Positions 3,120-40,505 of a stretch of DNA of 64,000 nucleotides are shown piece by piece. The position numbers and the translations under genes are program-made. Each line of letters opens with the position of its first letter. Positions within the stretch are counted from its first letter, which is position 1. Below the pieces are notes generated by a model. That model saw only the letters and a list, made by a program, of their open reading frames with translations. It did not search any database and had not been told where the DNA came from. The stretch comes from Deltaproteobacteria bacterium (GTDB taxonomy: Bacteria; Desulfobacterota; WTBG01; JAGOGO01), in contig JAGOGO010000001.1 in the NCBI GenBank assembly GCA_017996625.1, forward strand, positions 2,336-66,335, in the 5' to 3' direction.

Positions 3120-3267
3120 CGCCCGGATTGGGAGCAGTTGTTGAAATCGCGATTTGCGATTCGATACTGACGATATCAGAATGCAATTCTGAGCGTTTTT
3201 GTGGGATCATCACTGTTTGCGGTTGGATTGTTGCGAATTCGTCACCTTTCATCAAGCGAGGGCAACC

Positions 3268-3765
3268 GTGAAGCTCACACCCTTAGACATTCAGCAGCAG
3301 CGATTTTCGGTTAAGTTCAGGGGCTATGATATTCAGGAGGTGGATTCGTTTCTTGAGACAGTGGCTTCGGATGTTGAAGAGTATACTCAGAAGATCGATC
3401 GGCTCAATGAAGAAGTAGAACGAAAAAACGAGCGGATCTGGGAATATCAGAACATGGAAAAGACTCTCAAAGAAACCCTGATGATGGCCCAGACGACTTC
3501 GGAGGAAGTAAAGAAAAATGCCCAGCGGGCTGCTGATGATATGAGGCAGCATGCCCAGCGGGAGACGGAAACCATGCTCGCCGAAGCAAAACAGCAGTCA
3601 GCGAAAATAATGGAAGAGACCAATCTGCATCTGGCAAAGGTGCTTGCTGAGATCAGCGATCTTAAGGGAAAGAAAATTGTTATGGAGCAAGAGCTTCGAG
3701 CTTTTTTGGAGAAGCACCTCAGGCTCCTGGAAGAGACGGAGCGGACCAGCAGGACCGGTGAGTGA
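3268..3765 (+). CDS. DivIVA domain-containing cell-division protein
   Basis: Start set at in-frame GTG giving the canonical DivIVA N-terminus (V)KLTPLDIQQQRFSVKFRGYDIQEVDSFLE; rest is coiled-coil. The longer ORF from 3199 is a probable N-terminal over-extension. Confidence 0.75.
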   Translation: MKLTPLDIQQQRFSVKFRGYDIQEVDSFLETVASDVEEYTQKIDRLNEEVERKNERIWEYQNMEKTLKETLMMAQTTSEEVKKNAQRAADDMRQHAQRETETMLAEAKQQSAKIMEETNLHLAKVLAEISDLKGKKIVMEQELRAFLEKHLRLLEETERTSRTGE

Positions 3766-3775
3766 CCTGTCGGAT

Positions 3776-3936
3776 AGTGAAAAGTGAAGAGTGAAAAAAG
3801 TTCACCGTTGACCGAAAAACCAAAGGCTGGAGACGATCCCTTGTCGTCGACAAAAAAGATCTAATCCAGTCGGTCAACGGACAACGGTGAACAGTGAACG
3901 TACCCGTCACTTTTCCTTCCTACTCCTTACTGCTTT
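3776..3936. repeat. intergenic palindromic element, family member A (purine arm, inner 14-bp inverted repeat, pyrimidine arm)
   Basis: AGTGAAAAGTGAAGAGTGAAAAAAG, then TTCACCGTTGACCG ... CGGTCAACGG-ACAA-CGGTGAACAGTGAACG, then CACTTTTCCTTCCTACTCCTTACTGCTTT. Sits between the divIVA stop and the DUF167 start. Confidence 0.5.
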
Positions 3937-4005
3937 ATGCGTCCCTGCGCGAGAAAGAGTAGAGGTAATCGGGTGTCGGCCCTTACTCGACAAACAGGTA
4001 CCGCA

Positions 4006-4299
4006 ATGATTCAGGTGCGTGAAGACAAGACCGGCATCCTTTTTTGGATTACAGTAAAACCCCGGTCGAAGAAAAACGGTGTTATTATTGCCCACGATGA
4101 TACCGTTATCGTGCAGGTTACTGCAGCACCGGTAGAAGGAAAAGCGAATGAAGCGTGCTGTAAGGTCTTGGCCCAGGTGTTGGGAATAAGCAAGTCAAGC
4201 ATTTCCATTCGTACCGGCGAGACCTCAACAAAGAAACTGGTTCATTGCCGGAACATCTTTGCTGAGGAAGTCCGGTTGCGGCTCGATAGCAAAAAGTAA
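4006..4299 (+). CDS. DUF167 (YggU-like) family protein
   Basis: 97 aa from internal ATG (typical YggU length). ILFWITVKPRSKKNGVI...VTAAPVEGKANEA...LAQVLGISKSSISIRTGETSTKKLV matches the DUF167 signature. The upstream part of ORF 3937 overlaps a repeat element. Confidence 0.7.
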   Translation: MIQVREDKTGILFWITVKPRSKKNGVIIAHDDTVIVQVTAAPVEGKANEACCKVLAQVLGISKSSISIRTGETSTKKLVHCRNIFAEEVRLRLDSKK

Positions 4300-4405
4300 G
4301 AAGTTAAAAGTAAGAAGTAAAGAATATAGCGTAAGAAGTCATCAGACGATGAGCCATTTTCTATCCATTAACTCCTCACTTTTCACTCCTTACTTCTTAC
4401 TGTTA
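4294..4405. repeat. intergenic palindromic element, family member B
   Basis: AGTAAGAAGTTAAAAGTAAGAAGTAAAG ... ACTCCTCACTTTTCACTCCTTACTTCTTACTGTT. AGTAAGAAGTAA pairs with TTACTTCTTACT. Between DUF167 and mutM. Confidence 0.5.
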
Positions 4406-4413
4406 AGTGATTC

Positions 4414-12172: not shown

Positions 12173-14848
12173 ATGACCCCCATGGTTCGACAGTATGCTG
12201 CTATCAAGCAGCGCTATCCGGATGCGGTTCTCTTTTTTCGCCTCGGCGATTTCTACGAGATGTTTTTCGAAGACGCTGAGAGGGCATCACGGATTCTTGA
12301 TATTGTTCTTACCTCCCGCGAAGGAGGAAATGGGAACCGCATTCCCATGTGCGGCGTTCCCTATCATGCTGCTCAGGGATACATCACTCGCCTCACGAGA
12401 GAAGGACTTAAGGTGGCGATCTGTGAGCAGGTTGAGGATCCTAAGGCCGCTCGCGGTATCGTGAAACGAGAAGTGATTCGCATCATCACACCTGGCACCA
12501 ATATTCTTGATGAAGCTGATGAATCACAGGAAGAAAACTTTATTGTTGGTATGGTTCAAGAGCAGGGGATCGTCGGGCTTGCTCACCTTAATATGGGAAC
12601 CGGAACGTTTCGCGTAACCGAGCTGGGGTCTCGTGAAGATGTGTTGGGAGAGCTGGCACGCATCAAGCCGACCGAATGTGTGATCCCGGAAAAAATGGCC
12701 CAGTCACCCCACCTCCGGCCATTTCTCGATCGAGAACTCAAGGCAGTCGTCAACACCTATGAGCCATGGGTATTTTCTCTTGAGTATGCGGGTCGTGTAA
12801 TTAAGGAGCAGTTTAAAATTGCTTCCATGCAGGGCCTGGGGCTTGATGAGTATCCGATTGGCGCAATCGCCGCTGGCGCTGTGATTCATTACCTCCGGGA
12901 TAATATGCATGTTTCTCTGGACCATGTGCGGCCGCCTGCGATTTACTCCTCCAGCGAATACATGGTGCTCGACCGCAAGACGCTGCGCAATCTGGAGATC
13001 ATCACGACCACCAGCGGTGAAAAGGGAGATACCACGCTGCTAAAGGTGCTGAACCGGACGGTTACCCCGCTCGGTGGCCGACTGCTGCGGCAGTGGATCC
13101 GGCAGCCGCTCATTGCCGCGAATCTTATCAACGATCGGCTTGATGCAGTCGAGGAGTTTTTTCGTGAACGCAGTCTCATGTTCAAGCTGCGGGAAGCACT
13201 ACGTTTCATCCGAGATCTGGAACGAATTCTCGGTCGACTCGGGTGCAATCTTGGATCAGCCCGGGACCTAGTAGCGTTAAAAGACTCTCTCAAGCAGGTG
13301 CCACAGATGTATGAGCTTCTCTCACCCTGTGCGTCTACTCTGTTAGTGTACCAGCGCAGCCACTTGCATCACCTTGATATCCTTACTGAGGCTATTGAGG
13401 CGGCTATTGTGGATACTCCTCCACTTGGAACCAAAGAGGGAGGCATGATTCGGCGAGGATACCATGCGGAACTCGATGAACTCTATCGTATTGCCCATCA
13501 CGGCAAGGAATGGCTGGCTCAACTGCAGCAGCAGGAAGTCACCCGAACGGGCATAAAGTCACTCAAGATCCGCTATAATAAGGTCTTCGGATATTACATT
13601 GAAATCACGAAAGCGAACCTTGGCCAGGTTCCGGATTATTACATTCGGCGGCAGACGCTGGTCAACGCCGAACGTTTTGTCACTCCTGAGCTCAAAGAGT
13701 ACGAAGAACGAATTCTCGGTGCCGAGGAACGATCCTGCCAGATTGAACTGGAAATTTTTGAAGATCTTAGGAGCCGGGTCCTGCAGCAGAGTCGGGAAAT
13801 TCAGGAATTAGCTGAGTCACTTGCCGTAATCGACATTTTGGCAACCTTCGCGTATCTGGCACAGCAGTATCGATATGTTCGACCGACAATTGATGATAGC
13901 TCCGCAATATCCATTACTGGCGGACGACATCCGGTTGTTGAACACGTACTGGAGGAGGGACGATTCGTAGAAAATGACACCTTTGTCAATTGCGATGATC
14001 AGCAGCTGCTGGTCATTACCGGTCCGAACATGGCAGGCAAGTCGACGTACCTGCGGCAAGTTGCATTGCTCGTGCTTATGGCCCAGAGTGGAAGCTTTGT
14101 TCCTGCCGAGGCCGCACGCTTCGGGGTAGTAGACAAGATATTCACTCGCATCGGTGCTTCAGATAACCTCGCGCGAGGAGAAAGCACTTTTATGGTGGAA
14201 ATGATCGAGACCGCGCACATTTTGAACAATGCAACTGCTCGAAGTCTGATAATTCTGGATGAGATCGGGCGAGGGACCTCAACCTTTGACGGAGTGAGTA
14301 TCGCTTGGGCAGTATGCGAACACCTGTGCCGGCAATCGGGTCCGCGGCCGAAAACCCTCTTCGCCACCCATTACCATGAACTAACCGCCTTGGAAGAGAA
14401 CCTGTCAGGAGTGAAAAACTATACGATAATGGTAAAGGAGTACGAAGACGAAGTGGTTTTTATCCGTAAAATCATGCCGGGCAGCGCCGATCGCAGTTAT
14501 GGTATCCATGTTGGGAAAATGGCTGGATTGCCGGCAGAGGTCGTGGTACGGGCCGAGGCCATTCTCCGTGAACTCGAATCCGGGCCGGCAAAGGTTGGGC
14601 TCGTGAAGGTCCGGCAGCTGCTTCCTGATGCTGCGTTCTCATCGGCTTCAGCAGAAGTTTCTCCTGCAGGCGAGCGCAGCATGCAAACAAGAACCAGGCT
14701 GGAGCGCCAGCTGCCCTTTCTCCAGAGCCTTCCGCAGGACCATCCTGTTGTTAGGGAACTGATCGAGCTTGACATAAATGCCTTGACGCCCCTCCAAGCG
14801 CTCAATCAGCTCAACAAGCTGCAGATAATGGCGCAGAAAAAGGAGTGA
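12173..14848 (+). CDS. mutS: DNA mismatch repair protein MutS
   Basis: 891 aa. N-terminal mismatch-binding motif TPMVRQYAAIKQRYPDAVLFFRLGDFYEMFFEDA, Walker A GPNMAGKSTYLRQ, and DEIGRGTSTFDG. Confidence 0.95.
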   Translation: MTPMVRQYAAIKQRYPDAVLFFRLGDFYEMFFEDAERASRILDIVLTSREGGNGNRIPMCGVPYHAAQGYITRLTREGLKVAICEQVEDPKAARGIVKREVIRIITPGTNILDEADESQEENFIVGMVQEQGIVGLAHLNMGTGTFRVTELGSREDVLGELARIKPTECVIPEKMAQSPHLRPFLDRELKAVVNTYEPWVFSLEYAGRVIKEQFKIASMQGLGLDEYPIGAIAAGAVIHYLRDNMHVSLDHVRPPAIYSSSEYMVLDRKTLRNLEIITTTSGEKGDTTLLKVLNRTVTPLGGRLLRQWIRQPLIAANLINDRLDAVEEFFRERSLMFKLREALRFIRDLERILGRLGCNLGSARDLVALKDSLKQVPQMYELLSPCASTLLVYQRSHLHHLDILTEAIEAAIVDTPPLGTKEGGMIRRGYHAELDELYRIAHHGKEWLAQLQQQEVTRTGIKSLKIRYNKVFGYYIEITKANLGQVPDYYIRRQTLVNAERFVTPELKEYEERILGAEERSCQIELEIFEDLRSRVLQQSREIQELAESLAVIDILATFAYLAQQYRYVRPTIDDSSAISITGGRHPVVEHVLEEGRFVENDTFVNCDDQQLLVITGPNMAGKSTYLRQVALLVLMAQSGSFVPAEAARFGVVDKIFTRIGASDNLARGESTFMVEMIETAHILNNATARSLIILDEIGRGTSTFDGVSIAWAVCEHLCRQSGPRPKTLFATHYHELTALEENLSGVKNYTIMVKEYEDEVVFIRKIMPGSADRSYGIHVGKMAGLPAEVVVRAEAILRELESGPAKVGLVKVRQLLPDAAFSSASAEVSPAGERSMQTRTRLERQLPFLQSLPQDHPVVRELIELDINALTPLQALNQLNKLQIMAQKKE

Positions 14849-15062
14849 GAAGTAAGAAGAAGACGCCCTCGTTGCCAGCTCACGCTTATGCGTCATTCGT
14901 GTTGAATCCCTGTTGCGTGACAAACACGCTAGACGTTCGCGGCGGGGACGCCGCTCCCACAAGGCAGTGAAAAGTGAAATGCAAGAAGTACAAAGGCGAG
15001 GGGTGAGTCGTGTCTTCTCGTTCTTACTCCTCACTCTTGACTCCTTACTCCTTACTGTTTCA
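14849..15062. repeat. intergenic palindromic element, family member C (two purine arms, one long pyrimidine arm) in mutS-mutL spacer
   Basis: GAGAAGTAAGAAGAAGACG ... CAGTGAAAAGTGAAATGCAAGAAGTACAAAGG ... CGTGTCTTCTCGTTCTTACTCCTCACTCTTGACTCCTTACTCCTTACTGTTT. Confidence 0.5.
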
Positions 15063-30806: not shown

Positions 30807-32153
30807 ATGGAGCCACAACTCTTGAGGCAGTTTGAAGATCTTGTCAAAAAGAATATCGGCGTAACATCTTATAATCGTTGGTTTTCCCAAATCAAGCCCG
30901 AACGGATTGATGACCGAAAAGCAGTTCTTGCATGCCCTAATACGTTTGTTCTCGATTGGGTCAAACTTCATTACTATCCAATCATTGTGAAGACAATCCG
31001 AGAGTTGTTGGGAGAAACGGTGGCGGTGGAGCTCCTGGTGAAGGAATGTCCTTACGATGAAAACGGTGCAAGGATCAACACCCAGCAGCAGCGCTCACTT
31101 CCGGGAACAGAAAACTATTTGAATTGCCTGCCATTTGTAAATCAGGGATATTCATTCAGCAATTTCGTTGTCGGCCCGAGTAATCACCTGGCCTATGCTT
31201 CGGCCCTGGCGATAACCGAACCCGATTTCAGGCGTTACAATCCCTTTTTCATATACTCATCCGAGGGGCTCGGGAAGACTCATCTTTCAAGCGCCATGGG
31301 AGTGAAGATTTTCAATCACAATGCTGATGTCAAAATCTTCTATACAACCGCCGAGTGGTTCACCCATGAAATGATCCAGGCCCTACGAAAAAATCGGATC
31401 CTGGAATTCAAAGAAAGGTATCGGAAACACTGTGACGTTCTTTTTATCGAGGATATCCAATTTCTTCAGAAGAAAGAAAAAACCCAGGAAGAAATCTTTT
31501 ACACGCTGAATGCGCTGATTCAGATGGGAAAGCAGGTAGTGCTTACTGCGAATGCCAATCCCCGGGAGCTCAGCGACTTGAAATCTAATCTGAAATCGCA
31601 AATGGGAAGCGGGCTGGTAGTAGATATTCGGCAGCCCGATTACGAAACCAGGCGCGAAATTATTACCAAGAAATGTACTGAGGAGAAGGTTGAAATCTCA
31701 GATGATGCTGCCGATTTTATCGCCCGATCGATAACAAGCAACATTCGGGACTTGAAGAGTGCCTTGATCCATGTAATTGCCACTTCATCTCTGCTTGGCC
31801 AAGATATCACCATGGATGTGGTAAAGGAGAGTTTGAAGGGTTTTATAGAAAAGGCCAAAGTGATCGGTATCAATGAAATAAACAGCTTTATCGCCCAATA
31901 CTTCAAGATTTCGTTGGATCAGCTTCGCTCCAAATCCCGCAGTAGGACTGTTACCTATCCCCGGCAGATGTCATATTATTTTTGTCGGAAATATACCAAC
32001 AGTACATTGGCGGAAATCGGGAAGTGCTTCAACCGGAATCACTCATCAGTGGTACGGGCTCTGAATAAGTTCGAATCGAGCCTGCGCACTAATCGCAGTA
32101 TCCGTGACGCTGTCGACTTTTTGACCGAGAAGTTCGAAAAGAGCTATTTGTAG
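30807..32153 (+). CDS. dnaA: chromosomal replication initiator protein DnaA
   Basis: 448 aa. Domain I, AAA+ Walker A (SSEGLGKTHL), and Walker B (FIEDIQF) motifs. C-terminal DnaA-box-binding helix-turn-helix region (RSRTVTYPRQMSYYFCRKYTNSTLAEIGKCFNRNHSSV). Confidence 0.95.
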   Translation: MEPQLLRQFEDLVKKNIGVTSYNRWFSQIKPERIDDRKAVLACPNTFVLDWVKLHYYPIIVKTIRELLGETVAVELLVKECPYDENGARINTQQQRSLPGTENYLNCLPFVNQGYSFSNFVVGPSNHLAYASALAITEPDFRRYNPFFIYSSEGLGKTHLSSAMGVKIFNHNADVKIFYTTAEWFTHEMIQALRKNRILEFKERYRKHCDVLFIEDIQFLQKKEKTQEEIFYTLNALIQMGKQVVLTANANPRELSDLKSNLKSQMGSGLVVDIRQPDYETRREIITKKCTEEKVEISDDAADFIARSITSNIRDLKSALIHVIATSSLLGQDITMDVVKESLKGFIEKAKVIGINEINSFIAQYFKISLDQLRSKSRSRTVTYPRQMSYYFCRKYTNSTLAEIGKCFNRNHSSVVRALNKFESSLRTNRSIRDAVDFLTEKFEKSYL

Positions 32154-32159
32154 GTGGCT

Positions 32160-32255
32160 TGGAGAATGGAGAAAGGGAAAAATGGAGAATAGTGAATTTT
32201 TCCTTTGTTGTCCTTAAGCCCAGAACTATTTAACCATTTTCCCATTCTGCCACTT
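32160..32255. repeat. intergenic palindromic element, family member D, immediately after dnaA stop
   Basis: GGAGAATGGAGAAAGGGAAAAATGGAGAATAGTGAA ... CCATTTTCCCATTCTGCCAC. Same GGAGAATGG / CCATTCTCC arms as member E in inverse order. Confidence 0.5.
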
Positions 32256-33831: not shown

Positions 33832-33910
33832 CCCGCGAAGCGGGTTACCCGTCAGCTCTTCTGGCCCGCGAAGCGGGTTACCCGTCAGCTCTTCTGGCCC
33901 GCGAAGCGGG
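33832..33910. repeat. 33-bp tandem repeat, 2.4 copies, each with a CCCGC-GAA-GCGGG hairpin
   Basis: CCCGCGAAGCGGGTTACCCGTCAGCTCTTCTGG x2, then CCCGCGAAGCGGG. Lies in the rarA / iorA divergent intergenic region. Confidence 0.8.
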
Positions 33911-37189: not shown

Positions 37190-37435
37190 TCGGAGCGGGA
37201 AAGATACTGGAATAATGGATGACCTCTTGAAGTGAGCGAGGATCGCGGAAGAAAATCCTAAATGCGAATCTCTCAGCACTAAACAAATTCCAAATCCAAA
37301 GGCTCTAAGGTCCTAAACCAAACGAATTCTCCCATTCTCCATTTTTCCAATCTCCCACCATTCCGCTCCTCAGTCGGTGAACGGTGAACGGACAACGGTG
37401 AACGCGTAAGCCTCTAAGCGGTGAACACGCGGCAG
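37190..37435. repeat. intergenic palindromic element, family member E, plus 4x GGTGAAC direct-repeat array
   Basis: GGAGCGGGAAAGATACTGGAATAATGGATG ... CCCATTCTCCATTTTTCCAATCTCCCACCATTCCGCTCC, then CGGTGAACGGTGAACGGACAACGGTGAACGCGTAAGCCTCTAAGCGGTGAACACGC. The 17-mer AACGGACAACGGTGAAC is identical to 3876-3892. Confidence 0.55.
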
Positions 37436-40309: not shown

Positions 40310-40365
40310 ATTAGTTAAGTGGAGAATTGGTCAAATAGTGAATTGGTAGAATGATTGAGTTGCAT
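40310..40365. repeat. purine-rich family member after the EF-G paralog stop
   Basis: AGTTAAGTGGAGAATTGGTCAAATAGTGAATTGGTAGAATGATTGAG (AGTGGAGAA / AGTGAATTGG units). Confidence 0.35.
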
Positions 40366-40505
40366 GGTGAAAAGGCCACCAGACATTCATGACCAGGGTA
40401 CCTGTTCCTTCTTAAACAAGAACCACTTAACGATTCAACCAATTCCGGACTCACCGTGCTCCGCGCTCTCTGTCTCTAAATCCCCGGACCACTTCCTCGA
40501 TCAGC

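Follow-up and report, generated by a model that had tools for sequence, protein, structure and literature searches.

A nested palindrome between divIVA and DUF167 built from two inverted runs of a seven-base repeat

Imperfect palindromes of tens to about 150 nt, among them the REP/BIME and ERIC elements and the Correia elements of Neisseria, lie between co-transcribed genes or in 3' untranslated regions, where they fold in mRNA and affect its stability or its processing by RNase III. Each of these families is represented by many near-identical copies with a conserved full-length consensus, and REPs are paired with a transposase of their own, RAYT. Heptameric repeats are a different kind of intergenic repeat; as cited in two later papers (Mrazek et al. 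2007 via PMC4679880, PMC4692102), they are over-represented among bacterial simple-sequence repeats, in intergenic regions, and slippage has been proposed as their cause. Described families include the cyanobacterial STRR heptamers and the TAACTGA direct repeats of Beggiatoaceae and cyanobacteria (MacGregor 2015, PMC4679880). For two Xanthomonas genomes, Rehm et al. 2015 (PMC4692102) described GGGAATC heptamer repeats that occur as convergent inverted pairs at 70 of 186 and 75 of 183 sites and could form stem-loops or cruciforms; the sites lie mostly between co-oriented open reading frames (ORFs), with 16% convergent and 7-8% divergent, their lengths differ between the species, most are transcribed, and their function is unknown (PMC4692102). 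Here we analyzed a 64-kb stretch from a Deltaproteobacteria bacterium (contig JAGOGO010000001.1; hereafter the window) and found that a nested palindrome lying between its divIVA and DUF167 genes, which we call element A (3766-3940), consists of two inverted runs of a 7-base repeat. Our literature search found no paper containing CGGTGAACGGTGAA or its complement. The parts of element A are as follows:

3776..3797, plus strand: outer 5' arm, made of the purine-rich heptamers AGTGAAA AGTGAAG AGTGAAA (period 7 and 3.1 copies in Tandem Repeats Finder, TRF), which pairs with 3901-3923 in the minimum free energy (MFE) fold.
3800..3814, plus strand: inner 5' arm, GTTCACCGTTGACCG, read as G-TTCACCG-TTGACCG, two heptamer units that form 11 + 3 bp with 3878-3892.
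3815..3870, plus strand: unique core of 56 nt, containing three more nested helices.
3871..3899, plus strand: inner 3' arm, four tandem heptamers CGGTCAA CGGACAA CGGTGAA CAGTGAA(C), seen in the period-7 scan and in inverted repeats I9, I10 and I12.
3901..3936, plus strand: outer 3' arm, pyrimidine-rich TCACTTTTCCTTCCTACTCCTTACTGCTTT, with a tail (3924-3936) that is unpaired in the MFE fold.

The inner tier is thus a pair of inverted arrays, (TTCACCG)2 and (CGGTNAA)4, which lie inside the outer heptamer arms and enclose a unique core, itself a palindrome; AAA lies between the heptamers of the outer 5' arm and GTTCACCGTTGACCG of the inner arm. An earlier, sequence-only reading of this DNA had pointed to a 14-mer, TTCACCGTTGACCG, at 3801-3814; it is present, and together with the preceding G it makes an arm of 3800-3814. 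The reverse complement of this arm is matched on the 3' side in three overlapping registers, 3870-3885 (16 nt, 88%), 3878-3892 (15 nt, 93%) and 3885-3899 (15 nt, 87%), with duplex energies of -18.3, -21.5 and -16.9 kcal/mol, respectively, and the inner arms are separated by 56-70 nt depending on the register. The inverted match noticed earlier therefore stands, but what had been taken for an insertion of ACAA is one complete extra 7-nt unit, CGGACAA, and the CGGTGAA unit placed as ending at 3889 in fact ends at 3891. In the MFE fold, five nested helix groups (3769-3793/3901-3923, 3800-3814/3878-3892, 3819-3831/3865-3874, 3835-3838/3858-3861 and 3841-3845/3849-3853) span 3769-3923 (155 nt), and so the suggested extension of the stem by the outer arms, put at about 160 nt, holds at roughly 155 nt, whereas the two tiers envisaged are replaced by a multi-tier structure.

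Secondary-structure prediction, which the same reading had proposed as a check, returned a fold far stabler than shuffled sequence. The RNA MFE of 3766-3940 was -59.1 kcal/mol vs. -37.8 +/- 3.6 kcal/mol for dinucleotide shuffles (z -5.9; 0/200 shuffles as good), the inner part alone (3798-3901) reached -42.4 kcal/mol (z -5.8), its MFE structure making up 70% of the ensemble, and a single-stranded DNA fold of element A gave -29 kcal/mol (z -3.9). Among the 28 intergenic spacers of 90-450 nt that we folded in the window, the spacer carrying element A had the lowest fold z-score. Inverted repeats of at least 14/15 matches with a loop of 3-100 nt occur at only two loci in the window, element A and the adjacent downstream spacer (4304-4309), as compared with a mean of 0.3 hits per shuffled window.

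Copies and arrays in this genome were surveyed over the 64 kb of the window, in which period 7 (and 14) was the only enriched repeat period (3 sites each vs. about 0-0.2 in shuffles). A strict scan returned 3871-3899, 15026-15060 and 37375-37404 and otherwise nothing at periods 4-12; a looser scan added 3774-3797 at period 7 and, at period 14, 4288-4323 and 4368-4395, and 219 kb of other genomes gave a single period-7 match. Three of the features found in this way are related to element A by their repeat type:

37375..37404, plus strand: second CGGTGAA-type array, CGGTGAA CGGTGAA CGGACAA CGGTGAA CG, of the same unit family as the inner 3' arm of element A; direct only.
4288..4406, plus strand: element B, an outer-tier paralogue between DUF167 and mutM, a hairpin of a (GTAAGAA)n purine arm and a pyrimidine arm (inverted repeats I1-I3, TRF, fold).
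14843..15060, plus strand: element C, of the purine/pyrimidine heptamer family of the outer tier, between mutS and mutL.

A search of the window for other members of the 14-mer family, also suggested previously, thus turned up the second array at 37375-37404 and no inverted partner: no complementary array was found near it. Further heptamer arrays in the window lie at 3776, 4288, 15026 and 32160. A second heptamer family (AGTGAAA/GTAAGAA and their complements) supplies the outer arms of element A and also forms elements B and C; ACTCCTTACTG in the outer 3' arm of element A is common to the 3' arms of B and C, which are themselves 91% identical over 34 nt. Looser relatives of this purine/pyrimidine hairpin family follow dnaA (about 32159-32255) and an EF-G-like gene (about 40310-40445).

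Several further observations concern these families. In the spacer at 32159-32255, dnaA is convergent with an mgsA/rarA-like gene, and the neighbors of the hairpin spacers include the DNA-repair and replication genes mutM, mutS, mutL, dnaA and rarA, although the cases are few and this may be coincidence. A replication origin near dnaA (30807-32153) was considered and rejected, as neither a DnaA-box cluster nor a GC-skew switch is present. The motif ACTCCTTACT has 14 matches in the window vs. 2.3 expected, 10 of the 14 being in elements A-C, where it is concentrated in the pyrimidine arms just 5' of the downstream genes (3922-3931, 4371-4401 and 15026-15056); CUCCUUA seems similar to the 3' tail of 16S rRNA, as do the purine arms facing it (AAGGAG, GTAAGAAG) to Shine-Dalgarno sequences. 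In element B (4280-4413), mismatched positions in the arms read as A.C on the plus strand and as G.U on the minus strand, a strand asymmetry that suggests either transcription of the antisense strand or a mutation bias with a direction, from G to A in the purine arm. Over 20 nt, the 5' arm of element A (3776-3795) matches the complement of the element B 3' arm (4368-4387) at 90%, better than it matches that of its own 3' arm (I6 vs. I13); were the two to pair at long range, all of DUF167 would be looped out. The 5' arms of the two elements are also direct repeats starting with GATAG (D2). Family-level 'covariation', in which the arms of each member would match only each other, is true for elements D and E and was rejected for A-C given I6. 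Next to the second CGGTGAA-type array, a pyrimidine-rich 8-nt array (ATTCTCCC-like, 4 copies) abuts the four CGGTGAA units (together 37326-37404), and CGGTGAAC lies 15 nt 3' of them; neither this sequence nor the 8-nt array has a nearby complementary partner.

We then compared the locus with its relatives, for which two flanking genes and their starts matter:

3268..3765, plus strand: divIVA, 165 aa, GTG start and TGA stop (3763-3765); PF05103, E 2e-34; the same start is given by gene calls on 10 contigs.
4006..4299, plus strand: DUF167/YggU-family gene, 97 aa; PF02594, 2e-22; start from homology (N-termini in loci L002, L003 and L153) and gene calls.

The gene order is valS, nadC, coaX, divIVA, DUF167, fpg/mutM, all on the plus strand (Pfam), with the Fpg/MutM gene following DUF167, and Pfam and gene calls bear out the location of the palindrome between divIVA and DUF167, in a spacer of 240 nt (3766-4005). 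The best DivIVA matches in a species-representative genome set, which does not include this organism, were metagenome-assembled genomes labelled Deltaproteobacteria or Proteobacteria, 62-66% identical; the nearest matches in a larger search were labelled Deltaproteobacteria or Desulfobacterota, and among the 5.8 billion proteins searched there was no DivIVA homologue between 69% and 100% identity. Ten contigs from other samples (L023-L032) carry an identical DivIVA and an identical 240-nt spacer, and they are 99.97-100% identical to the window overall (0-2 differences in 3-10 kb). The locus is also carried by the metagenome-assembled genomes GCA_035342615.1 and GCA_035340455.1. At the divIVA-DUF167 junction of the four relatives checked (L002, L003, L153 and L154; DivIVA 62-67% identical), element A was not found: L153 keeps the order groES-valS-nadC-coaX-divIVA-DUF167 with a spacer of 9 nt, in L002 and L003 the two genes are separated by roughly 20-30 nt, and the 860 nt between them in L154 are unrelated in sequence, as is the long spacer of L001. 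Element A is therefore a gain of this lineage, not an operator inherited from an ancestor; the arms, whose lack of conservation in homologous intergenic regions was named as refuting the sequence-only reading, are absent at the orthologous junction in all four, which tells against an ancestral regulatory site. L153 does have a CGGTGAA-type array elsewhere, between the groEL stop codon and the groEL terminator hairpin, and the heptamer repeats move or arise independently of neighboring genes.

The DUF167 start codon is itself ambiguous, with three candidates: ATG 3937, which is in frame, 1 nt past the pyrimidine-rich run and about 5 nt past the ACTCCTTACTG motif of that run; GTG 3974, with GAGGT six bases 5'; and ATG 4006, favored by gene callers and homologue N-termini. 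No tRNA or tmRNA was found in the window. Two divergent spacers also carry repeats of other kinds. At 33832-33910, a perfect 33-nt tandem repeat of 2.4 copies (CCCGCGAAGCGGGTTACCCGTCAGCTCTTCTGG), with a small GC-rich hairpin in each unit, sits in a 415-nt divergent spacer downstream of the start of the mgsA-like gene, and a 20-nt inverted repeat (43397-43416/43527-43546; 95% complementary, arms 110 nt apart) lies in a divergent spacer of 435 nt that ranks second in the window for structure (z -3.2).

To place these repeats in a wider setting, we scanned JGI metagenome contigs for three consecutive CGG[AT][CG]AA units (CGGWSAA x3), which occur in at least 120 contigs with a GC content of 0.33-0.73 among the matches listed. 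Among those matches with enough flank, 37% of arrays lay inside crude ORFs vs. 86% of random positions in the same contigs, and of the intergenic arrays among the matches listed, 31 sat between co-directional genes, 12 between convergent and 4 between divergent ones. At least two complementary units were present within 200 nt of 38 of the 128 arrays (30%) among the matches listed (26 upstream, as in the window, and 12 downstream), the density of complementary arrays among these matches being 0.93 per kb near an array vs. 0.07 per kb elsewhere, a 13-fold difference. Folds of L080, L137, L076 and L100 have long stems of heptamer units around central hairpins; in L080, the most striking case, (TTGTCCG)n and (CGGACAA)n flank a perfect terminator-like hairpin. 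Notwithstanding, CGGWSAA is not a special or universal heptamer: in a control on viral contigs, two composition-matched heptamers gave 39 and at least 120 matches vs. 51 for CGGWSAA, and because such controls are as common or more so, a general heptamer-repeat phenomenon is indicated.

Two groups of these contigs were conspicuous in their own right. In L080 (4736-6346; VFQP010005483.1), arrays of 7-8 or more TTGTCCG/TTGACCG units and their complements build nested palindromes of very large size, folding at -114 to -137 kcal/mol, next to a (CGGTCAG)n array. A near-identical form, GCGTGAA-(CGGTSAA)3-4-CGGGAC..., recurs in L045, L055, L057, L076, L084, L100, L108, L112, L138 and L145 (GC 0.50-0.69), many of them high-GC soil contigs, where a long ORF often ends at the TGA of the first unit; as 7 is not a multiple of 3, three TGA-containing units place a stop codon in every frame.

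Taken together, these results make it probable, in our judgement, that element A is a lineage-specific, repeat-derived intergenic spacer element of heptamer-slippage origin, with the palindrome noticed earlier as its inner tier, and that it is probably co-transcribed with its neighbors. We favor a repeat-derived palindromic spacer because the arms have unequal numbers of units, the registers are degenerate, the core has no second copy in the window or the fetched loci and the outer arms are common to paralogous spacers. We reasoned that heptamer arrays of this kind could arise by replication slippage combined with inverted duplication around a pre-existing hairpin, and that the stem would then lengthen in steps of 7 nt, each arm growing on its own, consistent with the 2 vs. 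4 units and the three registers. In this lineage, 240 nt of structured sequence have taken the place of an ancestral spacer that measured about 9-30 nt, a length compatible with translational coupling. Scanning both strands of 3766-4005 revealed no promoter or terminator consensus, a sigma-70-like promoter included, and on the plus strand the one promoter-like site in the vicinity is at 3141-3168, 5' of divIVA. Because the genes lie on the same strand and the spacer has no such consensus, element A is probably co-transcribed with divIVA, DUF167 and mutM, and it would be expected to fold into an imperfect stem-loop of roughly 155 nt in the mRNA. By analogy with the intercistronic hairpins of the REP, ERIC and Correia families, such a stem-loop would most likely uncouple the stability and translation of divIVA from those of the downstream genes, either as a barrier to 3' exonucleases or as a site for a double-strand-specific RNase.

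How far this account can be carried differs from part to part. A real effect of element A at the RNA level, which we propose by that analogy, is a tentative suggestion that we are inclined to doubt, and a neutral or selfish by-product, which shares the same structural and origin explanation, is a somewhat stronger candidate that stops just short of being probable; we rank them in this way because the antisense strand folds as well or better and the arrays show no strand bias. Several points weigh against our account. The antisense RNA of element A folds slightly better than the sense RNA (-67.3 vs. -59.1 kcal/mol) and that of element B much better (-46.8 vs. -28.5 kcal/mol), so that selection on the sense mRNA is not favored; sense and antisense arrays among the metagenome matches listed numbered 18 and 13, and since this is no preference, it suits a DNA-level or neutral origin no less than a role as RNA. 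We assume that the element is co-transcribed and that its RNA folds in vivo, and we infer slippage and inverted duplication from the pattern of the repeats. The 10 conspecific contigs have no variation in unit number at the locus, which says little given that they are near-identical overall, and copy number and mobility, as judged from 64 kb of the genome, are poorly constrained.

Of the alternatives, an inserted miniature mobile element (MITE, REPIN or Correia-like), with the nested arms as its terminal inverted repeats, survives best, and even this we consider unlikely. It would account for a lineage-specific insertion of about 200 nt at a junction of about 9-30 nt in relatives, for a long imperfect palindrome in a transcribed-type location, and for outer arms common to elements B and C. 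Yet a BLAST search of A, B and C against the window and the fetched loci matched repeat arms only and returned no full-length homologous copies, the core (3812-3872) having no other copy there; family members are alike in the repeat type of their arms and not in internal sequence or length, and the arms are periodic repeats of variable unit number, not defined termini. No target-site duplication was seen by eye at the ends, and no search was aimed at transposase genes. As an imperfect palindrome 3' of genes, element A was also considered as an integron attC site and rejected, since inspection revealed no RYYYAAC/GTTRRRY core sites and the neighbors are housekeeping genes.

Two other proposals seem to us improbable, and about equally so. 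The first is that element A acts on replication, recombination or supercoiling at the DNA level, as a former of cruciforms or slipped strands or as an array bound by a nucleoid or single-strand-binding protein. The significant single-stranded DNA fold, the strand-indifferent arrays among the matches listed and the good antisense folds would all agree with this; however, arrays avoid divergent (promoter) spacers and favor sites downstream of genes, which is more easily understood as tolerance or use in transcribed 3' regions, the bulges that interrupt the stems disfavor cruciform extrusion, and no candidate protein is known. The second is that inverted heptamer arrays are not passive remnants of slippage but products of a general and active stem-extension process, adding 7-nt units symmetrically around existing hairpins, such as terminators and 3'-end structures, in many bacterial phyla; if true, it would make element A and those in L080 nested 'onion' palindromes of a kind, and their register-degenerate stems could serve as tunable RNA or DNA structures.

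Much less credible is a dedicated cis-regulatory RNA (attenuator, riboswitch-like leader or intrinsic terminator) or an antisense small RNA gene. The fold is very stable, and more so for the minus-strand RNA (-67.3 kcal/mol), but Rfam gave no match in the window at gathering thresholds and none to element A at E up to 10 (at permissive thresholds, element B was matched only by chance miRNA-precursor families), neither strand of 3766-4005 has a promoter or a U-tract terminator, the element is not conserved in relatives, and low-complexity repeat stems with degenerate registers are unlike a ligand- or protein-specific fold. An intrinsic terminator was also sought directly and rejected, with no site of G+C-rich stem plus U-tract in 3766-4005 on either strand, as was a sigma-54 -24/-12 promoter in the core, whose spacing and GC dinucleotide do not fit by eye.

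Least credible of all is the operator put forward in the sequence-only reading, in which GTTCAC/GTGAAC half-sites would bind a dimeric regulator of the DUF167-mutM transcript: the inverted hexamers are present and the 14-mer family is somewhat enriched in the window (12 matches at <=3 mismatches vs. 4.8 expected), but this enrichment comes entirely from the two heptamer arrays, the half-sites are units of 7-nt tandem arrays lying about 80-90 nt apart, off the helical repeat, in a spacer with no promoter consensus and not at a short fixed spacing within a promoter, the second array (37375-37404) consists of direct units alone, the orthologous genes in L002, L003, L153 and L154 have no conserved counterpart upstream, and such arrays occur in unrelated organisms beside any neighboring genes.

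Element A is thereby removed as a candidate operator or riboregulator of DUF167-mutM and explained as a repeat-derived spacer, which as a single locus carries little weight. The wider pattern is modestly useful, namely that CGGTGAA-type arrays lie downstream of genes and that, among the matches listed, about a third are accompanied by a complementary array close by. In genome scans, arrays of heptamers can be mistaken for palindromic binding sites or structured RNAs, and a 7-nt periodicity together with multiple registers is a quick tell. If it is true that such hairpins alter mRNA stability, the locus would be an example of a tightly coupled gene pair that has been uncoupled by growth of its spacer.

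Compared with the systems described so far, element A resembles REP, ERIC and Correia elements as an imperfect palindrome between same-strand genes, and these serve as the model for its possible action; it differs in that only repeat-type arms are common to its sister elements, the core being unique in the available data. With the STRR and TAACTGA repeats it has in common dispersed intergenic heptamer arrays, often 'split' by related 7-mers, and shorter, repeat-free spacers in relatives (PMC4679880); forward TAACTGA copies place stops in all three frames (PMC4679880), as do CGGTGAA, AGTGAAA and GTAAGAA in the window. TAACTGA repeats, however, are almost all direct (1 inverted set in 170), lie directly 5' of start codons in one orientation and are predicted to be hairpin-free (PMC4679880), whereas element A has inverted arrays and a strong hairpin. 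The closest described analogue is the inverted heptameric repeat pairs of Xanthomonas, which likewise have a 7-nt unit in imperfect tandem arrays of 2 to many units, are intergenic and rarely between divergent genes, and occur in large part as two close convergent arrays able to form stem-loops or cruciforms. Element A differs from them in its CGGTGAA-type unit, which is not G-rich and has no G-quadruplex potential, in its host, an uncultured lineage, and in its architecture, where the arrays are a single tier among several, enclosed by other heptamer families and themselves enclosing a palindromic core of unique sequence. We find in element A tandem 7-nt units (4 in the right arm and 2 in the left; period-7 scan and TRF), two nearby complementary arrays on opposite strands (I9, I10 and I12), and an intergenic repeat dispersed at several sites over the 64 kb surveyed. 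Element A belongs, then, to a known class, the inverted heptanucleotide repeat pairs of intergenic regions, its one unusual trait being that a second heptamer family encloses the pair.

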